A stretch of DNA of 64,000 nucleotides from Candidatus Omnitrophota bacterium. Its GTDB lineage: Bacteria; Omnitrophota; Gorgyraeia; 1-14-0-20-64-10. Below the pieces are notes generated by a model. The model was not told where the DNA came from, searched no databases, and saw only the letters and a list, made by a program, of their open reading frames with translations. The DNA lies in NCBI GenBank assembly GCA_016177405.1, contig JACOVG010000027.1, forward strand, positions 14,733-78,732, given 5' to 3'. The position numbers and the translations under genes were made by a program. The first letter of the stretch is position 1; every line of letters begins with the position of its first letter. Of the stretch, positions 54,178 to 58,161 are shown in pieces.

Positions 54178-57100
54178 ATGAGAAGACCTACCGTTGCGCT
54201 GGCCACAGGCGCCTTTTTCCTTGCCCAACTCTTTGGGCCGGGGCCCTCCCATGCTCTCCGCCCGCAGCAGGACGTGAGGGTCGGCTTGGAGGAGGCGCTC
54301 GCGCCCGCCGCTGGGCTTGAGGAAACGGCGAAGGCGGCGAATATTATCCGAAAGAACCACCTGGTGGAGGGATTACGCGGAGGCGAGTCAGACGCGACGG
54401 TAGTTTCGGCCTTCCTGAATCAGATACGAAGGCCGCCAACGGATGCGATAGCCATCTCAAGGCCCCCCTTGTCTGAAGAGCCGTACCGGACCGGCCCCCT
54501 CCTGCGGCGGGAGATGGAGAAGGTATCGTGGGGCAGAAGCTACGATGAAAAATACTGGCTGCCGGCCTTGGAACTGGTTCTTCAAGCGGCGGCCAGGCGG
54601 TTGAAGGTCGCCCCCAAAGAGCTTGGTCTCGTGAGCATGAAGCATCTCATGAGGCATCTCTTTCATGCCCGCGATCTCCAAGGGGATCTTCTCATGGGGG
54701 AGGATTCCGAATTGGATCTCTTCCGCTGGGCCTACCGGGAGATTCCCCGGACGGTAGCGCCCAAGCTTGCCTCCGGGGAGATCGATTCAAAGAAGCTCCA
54801 CGACGCCCTCGCCAATCCCTTCAAGGATTCCAACGATCGAGGCAACGACCAGGTGCAGCAAGCGATCTTTGAGTTGATGAGGGAGCATCCCGAACGGTTT
54901 GTAGATGATCCGAAAGAGCTGAAGGATAAGCCGCTGGAAGAGCTCGCGCCGATCGTCGAATCCTGGGTTCGCTTGGCCCTGGCCGCCAACCGGGTGGATT
55001 ACAGCCGGCCGGTGGCCTTGAAAGAGATCGAGAGGGTAGGAGGTCTGATTCCCTTTGTGAGGCGGGGGTTAGACACCCCATTTCTCGAGGCGCTGGGGCG
55101 AGACAACTATCTTAAGGAATTTGTTCAGCAGACCCTCGTCGGCTCTCCCGAGGTCTTTTTGGTCTATCTCGCCGACAACAACGCCGAGCTGACCGCGAGC
55201 TTGAAGCTGGCAGAGGTTCTCTTGTCGGCCAACCCCAACCTGGAGATCGCCTTTGTGGTCAAGGAGGATAACGGCGTCATGAACGACGCCTCGCACGAGG
55301 ACGCCTGGAGGATGATTTCCCACCAGCGCGATGGGGTGCCGGACATCTACGAGAAGCTGCGCGGCTATTTTCCAGATCGGTTCAGACTGCTTAAGGGACC
55401 CGGCTCCCAGGGGCTTCCCCTCAACGCCTTGCGAGCGGATGTGGCCGAGGCCTTGAGAGAGGCGGATGTCATCCTGGCCGAAGGGGAGGCCAACACCTGG
55501 ACGTTGAACGGACTGGACAAAGAGAGAATCTATCTTGCCTTGCGGCTAAAACAGGAAACATGGACGCGCCTCGTGTGGGGCATCGGCAAGGAGATTCTTT
55601 CTGATGATAAGCTGAAGTCCGAACAGCCGCCCGTCTTCGTCCGGATCGATGGGGCCCAGGGGGCATACTACCAGAACCCGCTCAAGGACCCCGACGGGGA
55701 AAACCCTTCCTGGACCATCTTAGAGAACTTGGACCCCTTGAAGCCGGCCCACGCGGGCTTGGAGGAGAAGGTGGCGCGGATATTGCCCGAGCAAATACTC
55801 CGGCAAGATTTCGGGAGGGTAAGGGAGGTTTCCTTTTTAATGGGTGGAGGGCTCGCGGCCTCAACGGAGAAGGCGCGTTTCCTGAAGTGGGATTCTTTCG
55901 AAGGCGAGCCGAGGGTTTTTGGGCACGACTCTTTCAAAACAGTTGTTTTCAGCCGCGGCGGAAATACCATCGCTTACGTGCCTTTCGATCAGACTGAAAA
56001 TAAGGGAGTCTCGGTCTACGATCTCGCCGAAAGGGCTGGCCGATTCATCCGAGTGGAAGAAGCCCGGGGCCCTGTCTTTCAGGCGGCGCTCGATCCCGAT
56101 GGAAAGCGATTGGCCCTTCTGTTTCTCGGCGAACCTAAAACCAAGGGAAAACCTAAGATCAAACTTCAAGTGAGAAATTCCACAACGGGCGAGCTTGAGC
56201 ACGACCTTGATATTTCAACGAAAGGCAAAAAGGTGCCGCTCCTTTTTACTCCTGATGGAAAGAAGCTGATAGCGGGGGAGTTTTTGGGCGATAACCCAGG
56301 TACCTCCCTCCGGTTTCTGGATCTTGAAACGAAGAAGGTTCATCCCTTGGCAGGCTCTTCCTCCGGCCTGCTCCAGTCGCTCCAGGCCTCCGACACCGCT
56401 TTGGTGGCCGCGGTGGCCGATGCCGATGGCAGCCGGTTCTACGCGATGACTTGGAATCTTACGGGAAAACCCACATCTCCCCGCGCCTGGCCGTTAGATC
56501 ATTCGGCGAGGTCGGTGGCCCTAAGCCCTGATGGTCGAACGATTGCCACCGGTAGGATAGAAGGGGAAATCCACCTTTGGGAAGTTGGCACGGGAAAAAA
56601 GAAGGCGATCTTGGAAGGCCACACCGGCGAGGTTTCCGCGCTGGCCTTCAGCCCGGATGGCAAGCGGCTGGCCAGCGGCAGCCGCGACGCCACGGTCCGC
56701 CTCTGGGACCTCGCCGGGCTGGAGGAGACGGAACCCGGCGTGCCATCGGCGGATGTGCGTTCCGGAGTATTGTCTGTCTATGGAAAACAGGCCCAGGCGC
56801 GTCCGCTGACGGAAACGGAGCTAAGAACGCACGAAGATACGTTCCGTGGGTTGCTGGAGTTGATCCCCACCGACAAAGATCGAGAAACGGATTTTATGGA
56901 CAGGCTTTTGAAAGGACACGAAGGGCCTGATCCGGGTTTAAGCTTCGCGGTTTGGACAGGGGGGCGCCCCATCGCGGTGGCGATCTTGACGAAATCGAAG
57001 AATCCCCGCTATCAAAATCGAAAGGCGGTCGTTTTGGAAGATGTCGCGGTGCATCCGGACTATCAGAGGACCCCGATCGCGGCTTGGCTGCTTTACCAGG

Positions 57101-58161
57101 CGTTCGCCAACGCTGCGCAACAGGGTTATTCATACGCCCATTGGCTGACGATGAGCGGCGGCCCTCAAAAAGAGGGTTGGCCGAATAAGTGGCCCGGCGC
57201 GGAGCGATCCGTCCCATTCTACAGGAAGTTCGCCGCCGTCATCAGGGAGGTCCGAATCGGTGATGCGGCGGCCGAATTTCCTGGGTACGCTTTCAGGAAT
57301 CCACATCTGGAGTTTGAGCTGGAACTGCCGGCCGGACTTGGCCAGCTCAAGACCAGTTTCGACGAGAAATCGAAAGCGCTGGTTACCGTCTACGGCGACC
57401 CTTGGGGCGAAGGTGTTCTGGACATCAGTGTTGAAATTCCGGTTGAGCCGGGAGCGAAGCGATCCGAGTTAGAGCGATTGCGGGATACTGCCGCGGATCG
57501 CCTGCACGAAGCGTTTCGTCAAAGCGCGTTGGTTTCACAAACCTCCTTCACGCTGACCCGTTTAGACGACAGCCTTTACTTGAGAGACCAAAGCGATGAG
57601 GTGAGCATACCCAACATTCATTTGTGGGAGGCGATCAAGAATACGGTGGATGCCTTGGCGGACCGTGCCGACGTGGAAAACCGGAGAATAGACGGCACGT
57701 TGTACGTTCGCGTTAGACGAAGAGAGGATCGCTGGCGAATTGAGTTTTCGGATAACGGCATCGGCTTTCCGGAACCCCCTTCAGATGTGTTCCGTTATGG
57801 ACCGTCGGCGCCCAAAGACAAAGAGCGCCGCTTGGGTTCGTTGGGAATGGCGTTAAAGGAGGGGTATTACGGCAACACGTTTTTGGGGCGGCACAGCGGT
57901 TTGTTGGTGATCGACAGCACGGATCGAAATTACAACGGTAGGCGAATGGTCTATGACGCGGTGGAGAAGAATGTTTTTCAAGAGCCCAGCCAAAGGAATG
58001 GCGGAATAGGGACGACGGTCATTTGGGAGTTCGGACCTTTGGCTGCCGGGCTGGAGGAGCCGCGGGCGGAGGCCCTGCGGGATGCGGGGTCCCCGCAAGC
58101 CCTGATCCCGACGTTTTCCGAAGGACTCAAGCAGACGCTGGAGTTGGCGGATGACCCCTGA
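54178..58161 (+). CDS. Large (1327 aa) GLEE-punctuated family protein: leader, DUF89-like, WD40 beta-propeller, GNAT-like, GHKL-type ATPase
   Basis: Leader ...PSHA-LRPQQ. GLEE at aa 36, 46, 527, 847 and 1291. DUF89-like motifs (ADNNAELTASL, LAEGEANTWTLNG). WD repeats (HTGEVSALAFSPDGKRLASGSRDATVRLWDL). GNAT-like domain paralogous to the first domain of the 37725 protein. Bergerat-fold motifs EAIKNTVDA (ExxxNxxDA) and DNGIGFP. Confidence 0.65.
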   Translation: MRRPTVALATGAFFLAQLFGPGPSHALRPQQDVRVGLEEALAPAAGLEETAKAANIIRKNHLVEGLRGGESDATVVSAFLNQIRRPPTDAIAISRPPLSEEPYRTGPLLRREMEKVSWGRSYDEKYWLPALELVLQAAARRLKVAPKELGLVSMKHLMRHLFHARDLQGDLLMGEDSELDLFRWAYREIPRTVAPKLASGEIDSKKLHDALANPFKDSNDRGNDQVQQAIFELMREHPERFVDDPKELKDKPLEELAPIVESWVRLALAANRVDYSRPVALKEIERVGGLIPFVRRGLDTPFLEALGRDNYLKEFVQQTLVGSPEVFLVYLADNNAELTASLKLAEVLLSANPNLEIAFVVKEDNGVMNDASHEDAWRMISHQRDGVPDIYEKLRGYFPDRFRLLKGPGSQGLPLNALRADVAEALREADVILAEGEANTWTLNGLDKERIYLALRLKQETWTRLVWGIGKEILSDDKLKSEQPPVFVRIDGAQGAYYQNPLKDPDGENPSWTILENLDPLKPAHAGLEEKVARILPEQILRQDFGRVREVSFLMGGGLAASTEKARFLKWDSFEGEPRVFGHDSFKTVVFSRGGNTIAYVPFDQTENKGVSVYDLAERAGRFIRVEEARGPVFQAALDPDGKRLALLFLGEPKTKGKPKIKLQVRNSTTGELEHDLDISTKGKKVPLLFTPDGKKLIAGEFLGDNPGTSLRFLDLETKKVHPLAGSSSGLLQSLQASDTALVAAVADADGSRFYAMTWNLTGKPTSPRAWPLDHSARSVALSPDGRTIATGRIEGEIHLWEVGTGKKKAILEGHTGEVSALAFSPDGKRLASGSRDATVRLWDLAGLEETEPGVPSADVRSGVLSVYGKQAQARPLTETELRTHEDTFRGLLELIPTDKDRETDFMDRLLKGHEGPDPGLSFAVWTGGRPIAVAILTKSKNPRYQNRKAVVLEDVAVHPDYQRTPIAAWLLYQAFANAAQQGYSYAHWLTMSGGPQKEGWPNKWPGAERSVPFYRKFAAVIREVRIGDAAAEFPGYAFRNPHLEFELELPAGLGQLKTSFDEKSKALVTVYGDPWGEGVLDISVEIPVEPGAKRSELERLRDTAADRLHEAFRQSALVSQTSFTLTRLDDSLYLRDQSDEVSIPNIHLWEAIKNTVDALADRADVENRRIDGTLYVRVRRREDRWRIEFSDNGIGFPEPPSDVFRYGPSAPKDKERRLGSLGMALKEGYYGNTFLGRHSGLLVIDSTDRNYNGRRMVYDAVEKNVFQEPSQRNGGIGTTVIWEFGPLAAGLEEPRAEALRDAGSPQALIPTFSEGLKQTLELADDP

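Follow-up and report, generated by a model that had tools for sequence, protein, structure and literature searches.

Layout of the locus

The stretch analysed here (hereafter, the window) comprises 64,000 nucleotides of a Candidatus Omnitrophota metagenome-assembled genome (MAG; assembly GCA_016177405.1, contig JACOVG010000027.1, positions 14,733 to 78,732 of the forward strand). Four of its proteins have their modules bracketed by a short in-frame mark, [A/S/G]-G-L-E-E (hereafter GLEE), and the two largest, the products of open reading frames (ORFs) A and B, share a GNAT-fold cassette. ORF A (54178..58161, + strand; NCBI MBI1953628.1, annotated 'GNAT family N-acetyltransferase') encodes 1327 amino acids (aa), and ORF B (37725..46004, +; MBI1953617.1, annotated from Met-6) encodes 2759 aa; both lie on one 117.6-kb contig. 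According to Pfam, ORF A combines four unrelated domain types and ORF B at least four.

ORF A, all of whose features are on the + strand, opens with a predicted Sec-type signal peptide (54178..54255), recognised by eye from MRR, a hydrophobic core and P-S-H-A↓L-R. A six-frame scan places five GLEE delimiters behind it. Delimiters 1 (aa 36-39; 54283..54294) and 2 (aa 46-49; 54313..54324) stand in tandem before an ARMT1-like (DUF89) damage-control phosphatase module (54325..55755; PF01937, 65.4 bits). Delimiter 3 (aa 527-530; 55756..55767) precedes a WD40/PD40 beta-propeller module (55768..56715), the final WD repeat of which (...VRLWD-LA) abuts delimiter 4 (aa 847-850; 56716..56727). Cassette homology starts at this point, with GNAT copy A (aa 847-1065; 56716..57372) containing motif A as QRTPIA and motif B as FY-K-A with the family-invariant Tyr. 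The cassette is followed by a connector of ~75 aa (57373..57597), predicted to form one long helix and containing neither a delimiter nor a HisKA match, and by a probable GHKL-type (Bergerat) ATP-binding domain (57598..58047) with N box EAIKNTVDA, G1 box DNGIGFP and G2 box GSLGMAL. Delimiter 5 (aa 1291-1294; 58048..58059) stands ahead of a 33-aa tail without a recognisable domain. The interval 54316-58059, to which the initial annotation assigned a GNAT-like cassette fused to a GHKL ATPase, does run from the second to the last GLEE and takes in all ORF A modules, but the cassette itself occupies only 56716-57372 and the GHKL part about 57598-58047.

ORF B has a signal peptide and eight GLEE marks. 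Its modules are, in order, the GNAT cassette, a 739-aa module of unknown type, TPR, a Metallophos phosphatase, Fic, two further unknowns and a C-terminal module. GNAT copy B (aa 45-277; 37857..38555, +; motif A QGTPAT) has GLEE at both sides (37857 and 38556), and the C-terminal module (aa 2611-2759; 45555..46001, +) begins at GLEE and has no Pfam match. A 398-aa module of the same protein (44361-45554, +), also without a Pfam match at E <= 1, contains LEIGAGPGGG, which resembles the S-adenosylmethionine-binding motif I of class I methyltransferases.

Two GLEE-bounded module pairs

BLASTP of ORF A against ORF B yields a single strong segment (A 846-1064, B 44-274) with 95 of 238 positions identical (40%; 142 bits; E = 2e-37). 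The alignment of about 200 aa claimed in the initial annotation is therefore real and keeps its significance in a proper alignment, and all the motif pairs listed there recur in the translations and the alignment: LELIPTD/LKLIPTD, LSFAVW, RPIAVAIL/RPIALATL, PRYQ/PRYK and WLLYQAF/WLLHRAF, together with AVVLEDVAVHPDYQRTP/AVILENFAVHPDFQGTP and FRNPHLEFELELPAG/FKNPHLEFEFALPG. EAIKNTVDA and DNGIGFP are likewise both found in ORF A, downstream of the cassette. When the proteins are split at GLEE, module A 847-1290 matches B 45-277 with 40.2% identity over 224 aa (E = 9e-43). The homology begins exactly at GLEE and, in ORF B, stops four residues before the next GLEE. The cassette is thus a stand-alone first module in ORF B, while in ORF A it is joined to the GHKL part with no mark in between. 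At the DNA level the two copies are 54.7% identical, falling to 38.8% at third codon positions; synonymous sites are therefore saturated and the duplication is ancient. The copies are ancient paralogues under purifying selection and not products of recent conversion.

A second pair of modules behaves in the same way. Residues 2611-2759 of ORF B align with residues 262-417 of a 417-aa GLEE protein (31% identity over 164 aa; E = 6e-12), and both members (149 and 156 aa) begin exactly at GLEE and lack a Pfam match. The reuse of GLEE-delimited modules, proposed earlier from the cassette, is borne out and is extended by this pair and by the delimiters of other lineages described below. We infer that recombination took place at the GLEE motif; the exchange would be old, not recent.

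Fold and rarity of the cassette

The cassette is a GNAT-fold domain of the acyl-CoA (coenzyme A) acyltransferase type, about 220 aa long, as judged from a structural model together with profile matches. Copy A scores 31.9 bits against Pfam PF00583 (Acetyltransf_1; cut-off 20.7), and relatives P0004-P0009 also exceed the cut-off (27-74 bits); P0006 has a second, unrelated GNAT domain as well. Copy B alone is sub-threshold (Acetyltransf_7, E 2e-3), yet it is 40% identical to copy A. An AlphaFold2 model built on a 13-sequence family alignment covers ORF A residues 856-1070 (model residues 11-225) at a predicted local distance difference test score (pLDDT) of 80-95. Its order of elements, b1-a1-a2-b2-b3-b4-a3-b5-a4-b6-b7, is the GNAT topology, extended by one more strand at the N-terminus and a long helix at the C-terminus. 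Against the PDB, Foldseek returns 304 matches to this model at E <= 1e-3; every one of the 50 listed is a GNAT enzyme, and the protein N-terminal acetyltransferases Naa30, Naa50, Ard1 and RimI come out on top. The best matches (7mx2_A, 6wfg_C, 4pv6, 5isv and 9mto) reach target-normalised template modelling (TM) scores of 0.73-0.80, but the E-values of many GNAT subfamilies lie within one log unit of one another. NCBIfam rimI does not match the cassette, and a cassette profile run against PDB sequences reaches a best E of about 0.5, with the RimI-like 9mto on top. Taken together, the Pfam score, the topology of the model and the Foldseek matches agree with the paralogous GNAT-like cassette that had been read from the sequence.

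The motifs of the family point in the same direction. In GNATs the Tyr of motif B serves as the general acid, and motif A forms a pyrophosphate-binding loop, Q/R-x-x-G-x-G/A. Trp125 and the motif-B Tyr170 (R-A-x-x-F-Y-x-K-x-G-A) are invariant in the family, Tyr170 being present in all 13 copies. The family version of motif A is Q-x-T-x-V-A, with the consensus Q-G-T-x-V-A; the fourth residue is Gly in P0007, P0008 and P0012 but Pro in both window copies.

The cassette is a rare GNAT subfamily, found otherwise in only about 10 large modular proteins. A HMMER search of 1.84 billion representative proteins with a two-copy cassette profile finds 14. Besides the two window proteins, these are eight modular proteins of 1149-4743 aa and a relative of 397 aa; the other three matches are weak or spurious. 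All relatives with a source name come from Omnitrophota. Pattern scans of genome, metagenome and viral contigs give no match to the GLEE-lineage cassette, nor does tblastn of the cassette against plasmids and phages.

The probable GHKL part of ORF A

The C-terminal domain of ORF A (~150 aa) is probably a GHKL ATP-binding domain, although its score is marginal. When the C-terminal 247 aa are scanned alone, HATPase_c (PF02518) passes its 26.4-bit cut-off with 26.8 bits (E = 7.6e-6), and the score drops to 22.7 bits when the full ORF A is scanned. The GHKL boxes nevertheless follow in the right order: EAIKNTVDA fits E-x-x-x-N-x-x-D-A, DNGIGFP fits D-x-G-x-G, and GSLGMAL is G2-like. HtpG, DevS and YycG are among the few sub-threshold PDB matches. 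Within the GHKL superfamily, the N box of ORF A is like that of Hsp90 and MutL, whereas the stretch from G1 to G2 comes nearest to histidine-kinase CA domains. Histidine kinases carry a DHp/HisKA domain upstream of the CA domain; in ORF A, Pfam gives no HisKA-family match at E <= 1, and the 75-aa connector upstream of the GHKL part contains a single predicted helix in the model, so that the DHp domain of a histidine kinase is lacking. The fusion proposed initially is in this respect readable from the motif boxes and from a profile barely past its cut-off, but the fold itself was not recovered by modelling.

HATPase_c is detected behind the cassette in two proteins, ORF A and P0007, and the downstream mark is absent from both. 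P0007 has two marks (PDTAMKVDRAMAT) directly after its HATPase_c domain.

GLEE marks in the window proteins

GLEE occurs 20 times in the six-frame translation of the window, always on the + strand, and four ORFs account for 19 of these copies. A short motif recurring at domain boundaries, as in polyproteins, is accordingly observed 19 times in four proteins: eight times in ORF B, five in ORF A and three each in proteins of 1002 and 417 aa. The expected numbers are 0.20 for ORF B and 0.09 for ORF A, and none of 2000 shuffles reached either count. The residue preceding the Gly is Ala in 13 cases, Ser in three, Gly in two and Val in one. None of the 19 marks falls in the interior of a Pfam-matched stretch, GLEE-847 abutting the last WD repeat, and in the model the marks lie in low-confidence, probably flexible stretches. 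The first GLEE follows the predicted signal-peptidase site by 8-14 aa in all four proteins. Tandem marks are 10-12 aa apart, and a GLEE stands ahead of domain-less tails of 19 aa (1002-aa protein) and 33 aa (ORF A).

The 1002-aa protein (24097..27105, +) consists of a signal peptide, two GLEE, sigma-70 regions 2-4, several Xre-type helix-turn-helix domains, a further GLEE and the 19-aa tail. It is odd to find a sigma factor following an export signal; the protein could be an effector acting on another cell's RNA polymerase, or its leader could be no true signal peptide. The 417-aa protein (28268..29521, +) consists of a signal peptide, two GLEE, a RimI-like GNAT that is different from the cassette, another GLEE and the shared C-terminal module (29051..29518).

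The leaders of the four proteins are detectably homologous, and each runs from a basic through a hydrophobic stretch to x-A↓L-R. They end in SHALR (54178-54261), AHALR (37725-37820), SFALR (24097-24213) and LALR (28268-28369), and relatives P0003, P0009 and P0012 from other samples have AYALR, SYALR and YSALR. The conservation of x-A↓L-R exceeds that of a generic signal-peptidase site and may mark a sorting signal.

The only GLEE outside the four proteins (RRGLEEAQ; 16474, +) lies in a radical-SAM/lysine-2,3-aminomutase-like ORF (15422-17083); its Glu codons are GAA GAA, and it probably arose by chance.

Marks in other lineages

Relatives of the cassette from other samples are bracketed by lineage-specific marks of 4-6 residues with other sequences. 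D-x-A-M-L marks occur in P0004, P0005, P0007 and P0010, R-[SA]-E-[VA]-R marks in P0006 and P0008, and SSSAG marks in P0009 and P0012, while P0003 has a degenerate G-[LR]-EE. An unbiased count places GLEE, AML/DQAM and RSEV/AEAR near the top of the enriched k-mers of their own proteins. Marks of the D-x-A-M-L and R-S-E-V-R types number 17, 7 and 8 against 1.55, 0.05 and 0.08 in shuffles, by regular expressions that were written after the motifs had been seen.

Their positions are more telling than their sequences. In 9 of 12 cassette copies motif A is preceded by an upstream mark at 107-128 aa, and in 8 of 12 it is followed by a downstream mark at 86-109 aa; in the family alignment the downstream mark occupies the same columns in ORF B, P0003, P0004a/b, P0005a/b, P0006 and P0010. 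These distances hold across the GLEE, D.AML and R.E.R lineages, that is, for three unrelated mark sequences. That one module is flanked at constant distances by differing marks shows these to be functional punctuation rather than noise.

A metagenome scan with the N-terminal domain of the D.AML-type proteins detected 475 or more related loci, and 80 of these were retrieved. By k-mer counts in long ORFs, locus L010 uses an ASSP[VIM] mark (10 copies, 0.07 expected), L007 uses D-[AP]-A-A-I-G, and L013, L018 and L050 use D-x-A-M-V-G. Response-regulator receiver domains are preceded, 3-14 residues upstream, by DQAMT in L001, ASSPV in L010 and NAAMT in L061, and a receiver domain of P0004 (3703-3818) lies between marks at 3693 and 3824. 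The k-mer TALM, enriched in L009, was rejected as a delimiter because it belongs to a repeat domain, read as an ankyrin repeat.

The domain used for the scan, abundant in metagenomes as the at least 475 loci attest, is a shared N-terminal domain of ~400 aa without a Pfam match (LP-x-PG ... WVNLSPYE ... TEMGRDLLAQDY). D.AML-type proteins (P0004, P0005, P0007, P0010; L002-L081) also have a C-terminal domain of ~80 aa, GGIDLNP ... FVPVIINITP. At L001, in another Omnitrophota MAG, a gene for a secreted transglutaminase-like protein with Cys-His-Asp (3621-4226, - strand) is divergent from the 3749-aa D.AML-type gene (P0005); its product is a possible cysteine protease candidate, and a lead only.

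Codon usage within the marks

The marks are conserved in their codons as well as in their residues. In the window, GAG is used in 18 of 19 marks at each Glu (36/38; gene-wide 0.60) and CTG in 12 of 19 (gene-wide 0.32). The same holds elsewhere: TCG in 9 of 10 L010 marks (0.19), ATA in 5 of 5 L007 marks (0.13) with GCG in 6 of 6 at each of two positions (12/12; 0.26), and GTG in 4 of 4 L013 marks (0.14). Marks have a GC content of ~70-75% even where the genome has 40-52%. GGAGGAG is included in 16 of the 19 GLEE sites. Internal translation starts behind this sequence were considered and rejected, since ATG or GTG is well spaced at only 3 of the 16 sites and GGAGG is frequent across the window.

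Synonymous variation does occur, at the Gly and Leu positions of GLEE and among the D.AML codons of L001. Moreover, the flanks of the GLEE marks are mutually unrelated and their codons are not homogenised. This variation, together with the unrelated flanks, therefore indicates the peptide as the object of selection.

A proposed function for the marks

The reading that we tentatively prefer is that a lineage-specific factor recognises the marks as processing sites and that the same marks are in-frame junctions for module exchange; this is quite possibly correct, though short of probable. GLEE proteins would be exported via their Sec leader, and the factor would then read the marks, endoproteolysis being the most likely way in which modules are released after export. 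The marks would also have acted as in-frame junctions in past exchanges of modules, like VENN in CdiA toxins. The GNAT module would be an active protein acetyltransferase working where acyl-CoA is available, most plausibly within a target cell. Absence of the downstream mark, as in ORF A, would keep GNAT and GHKL together as one two-domain unit. Modules that need acyl-CoA, ATP or RNA polymerase sit behind a signal peptide, which suggests action inside another cell; this speculation accords with proposals that Omnitrophota live as predators or parasites. Marks that stand after the leader, in tandem and before domain-less tails fit punctuation better than hinges. In a wider and rather doubtful version, Omnitrophota and related uncultured bacteria would write their exported multi-enzyme proteins as punctuated polyproteins: a genome-specific mark of 4-6 residues, constant in frame and in its codons, would bracket each module, and a co-evolving, lineage-specific reader, be it a protease or machinery acting on RNA or translation, would split the giant ORF into separate enzymes.

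Several observations weigh against the preferred reading. Cleavage at the marks is proposed from sequence, and the signal peptides were judged by eye from sequence features. No dedicated protease was found, and Pfam detects no protease domain in the four GLEE proteins. Only this MAG and one 2.1-kb contig represent the GLEE lineage. Position 4 of motif A, usually Gly in GNATs, is Pro in both window copies (QRTPIA and QGTPAT), so that binding of CoA by the window cassettes is likely from their sequence but not assured. The GHKL part is modelled at a pLDDT of only ~35 when the family alignment is used and 46.6 from the single sequence, and Foldseek finds nothing at E < 0.1 for the single-sequence model. 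BLASTP detects no similarity between the GHKL parts of ORF A and P0007, and the GNAT-GHKL arrangement is for this reason a recurrent architecture, not proven orthology. Finally, the codons of the marks are conserved beyond the needs of the peptide, which points to a role at the level of DNA, RNA or translation that a pure protease-site model does not predict. This dual conservation of peptide and codons keeps recombination-junction and translation-level readings alive.

Among the alternatives, the one that fares best, while still unlikely, takes the marks as uncleaved junctions at the nucleotide level: a genome-specific in-frame oligonucleotide of 12-18 nucleotides (nt; here GCC GGS YTG GAG GAG), serving as microhomology or as the site of an unknown recombinase, would allow modules to be deleted, duplicated or exchanged among paralogous genes without loss of frame, and the peptide would be a by-product. 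Codon-level conservation in four independent lineages speaks for this, as do the start of module-pair homology exactly at the mark, the direct orientation of all marks on one strand and the precedent of VENN-encoding DNA, which bounds exchanged CdiA-CT modules. However, the flanking codons are not homogenised and the adjacent modules are saturated at synonymous sites, so that gene conversion would have to be confined to 12-15 nt, which is below the usual minimum for RecA-dependent recombination. The synonymous variation in the Gly and Leu codons of GLEE and in the D.AML codons of L001 also argues against it. Nor would a nucleotide junction explain why mark positions are conserved across lineages or why marks stand after signal peptides and before tails.

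Somewhat less probable again is that the marks are passive, conserved hinges between modules, serving to cap the structure or to dock a partner (for instance a chaperone or scaffold), and that the chain is never cut. Long multi-enzyme proteins of Omnitrophota have been described as single polypeptides (bioRxiv 10.64898/2026.06.07.730766), the marks do lie in low-confidence and probably flexible stretches of the model, and the failure to find a protease is what this alternative expects. Yet a hinge is unneeded 8-14 aa past a signal peptide, 10-12 aa from another mark in tandem or before a tail of 19-33 aa. Hinges are also not normally invariant within one genome (19/19) yet replaced wholesale between lineages, and the conservation of codons would be left unexplained.

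A low probability attaches to punctuation at the level of translation, in which programmed ribosome pauses or recoding at module boundaries would aid co-translational folding or export. The signal would be encoded by specific codons, Shine-Dalgarno (SD)-like GGAGGAG in this genome and rare G-ending or ATA codons in AT-rich lineages. The constant frame and the codon conservation agree with this, as do the presence of GGAGGAG in 16 of 19 GLEE sites and the use of locally uncommon codons in genomes of 40-52% GC (GCG 0.17-0.26, GTG 0.14, ATA 0.13, TCG 0.19). However, GGAGG occurs 311 times on the + strand of the window and GGAGGAG 36 times outside the GLEE genes, so that an SD-like pause would not be distinctive here. 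In addition, GAG and CTG are common codons of the window genes, no start codon consistently follows the GLEE motif, and the D.AML marks of L001 are without an SD-like sequence. To our knowledge, there is no bacterial precedent for a 2A-like event.

That the similarity between ORFs A and B is an artefact, either a chimera or duplication in the assembly or a chance likeness of two ordinary GNATs, is scarcely credible: although the sequence comes from a MAG and the GLEE genes have a lower GC content at third codon positions (GC3) than their neighbours, E = 2e-37 is reached across the full module length, DNA identity of merely 54.7% rules out a duplicated assembly segment, both ORFs lie amid core genes of the same contig, and the cassette subfamily has been recovered independently in other metagenomes.

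Genomic setting

ORFs A and B are set among ordinary chromosomal genes of a diderm bacterium. ORF B lies between the LeuS and ComEC genes, and around ORF A are genes for UvrC, PrfB, SecA and Lnt and an Ogt-like gene; the window also contains the BamD and LptE genes. The GC3 of the GLEE genes is 0.66-0.72, below the 0.8-0.9 of their neighbours. The region from 24 to 30 kb of the window has a GC content of 0.58-0.61, lower than the remainder, and looks island-like. Two ORF6N-domain genes (27172-27528 and 29615-30148, both +) and a SpoVG gene (27740-28078, +) surround the gene of the 417-aa GLEE protein. An M48-family peptidase gene (23193..24014, -), divergent from the 1002-aa GLEE gene, is the only peptidase gene seen close to a GLEE gene in the window, and is a lead only. 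A PADLOC scan gives no match to a defence-system protein, only generic domains (WD40, Fic, HTH).

Comparison with known systems

The cassette shares with the GNATs (PF00583; RimI, Ard1/Naa10, Naa30, Naa50) the fold, the order of strands and helices, the motif-B Tyr and a recognisable motif A. Its identity to solved GNAT structures is 9-17%, and it differs from them in the extra N-terminal strand and the long C-terminal helix. Unlike the GNATs named, it is always a module of large multi-enzyme proteins and never stands alone.

Long multi-enzyme proteins with signal peptides have been described in Omnitrophota, in which GNAT, HATPase_c and methyltransferase domains reportedly occur together as 'Module 1' (bioRxiv 10.64898/2026.06.07.730766; bioRxiv 10.1101/2023.11.21.568195). 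ORFs A and B resemble these proteins in coming from the same phylum, in having unrelated enzyme domains that tile one chain and in starting with a signal peptide. However, the catalogue of the 2026 preprint concerns proteins of at least 10,000 aa, whereas ORF A has 1327 aa and ORF B 2759 aa, and neither contains the transmembrane helices, dockerins or C39/S8 peptidase domains of the long proteins. A term search of the two papers finds no mention of recurring marks between modules, and the literature on the GLEE motif and on polyproteins or cleavage sites in Omnitrophota likewise gave no description of such marks. West-Roberts et al. asked whether giant proteins are cleaved and noted that information on cleavage points was lacking (bioRxiv 10.1101/2023.11.21.568195).

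Giant multi-enzyme proteins characterise the Omnitrophota, and the literature openly asks whether they act as a single chain or as cut pieces. The novelty here lies chiefly in a genome-specific punctuation of modules, which the shared GNAT module exposed by serving as a ruler; the rare GNAT subfamily and the recurrent GNAT-GHKL unit are further new elements. The marks, such as [A/S]GLEE in this genome, are the first concrete and testable candidates for sites at which giant proteins may be cut or recombined. They permit the proteins to be split into units for structure prediction and give a co-variation handle for finding the reader. If the punctuated-polyprotein reading is true, the cleavage points of giant Omnitrophota proteins would be predictable from sequence alone, and their modules would have been shuffled in frame. 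Substrates of the GNAT-GHKL pair may be connected with the predatory or parasitic way of life that has been proposed for these bacteria.

Outside the phylum, MARTX toxins offer one parallel, as they are exported arrays of unrelated effector domains that are released at inter-domain sites. Their cleavage sites have no fixed four-residue motif, and Pfam scans find in the GLEE proteins no Peptidase_C80, RTX repeats or type I secretion system context. Polymorphic toxins of the Rhs type carry the demarcation motif PxxxxDPxGL. CdiA and Rhs proteins have one motif per protein, before a single C-terminal toxin with an immunity gene, whereas the GLEE proteins have up to eight marks that bracket every module, no immunity genes and a motif that varies with the lineage. 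In CdiA, VENN demarcates exchangeable CdiA-CT modules and also the precise site of proteolytic processing (PMC3150448, PMC9424206). VENN and GLEE are thus alike in that a very short peptide stands at the edge of an exchangeable module and that homology begins exactly at the motif.

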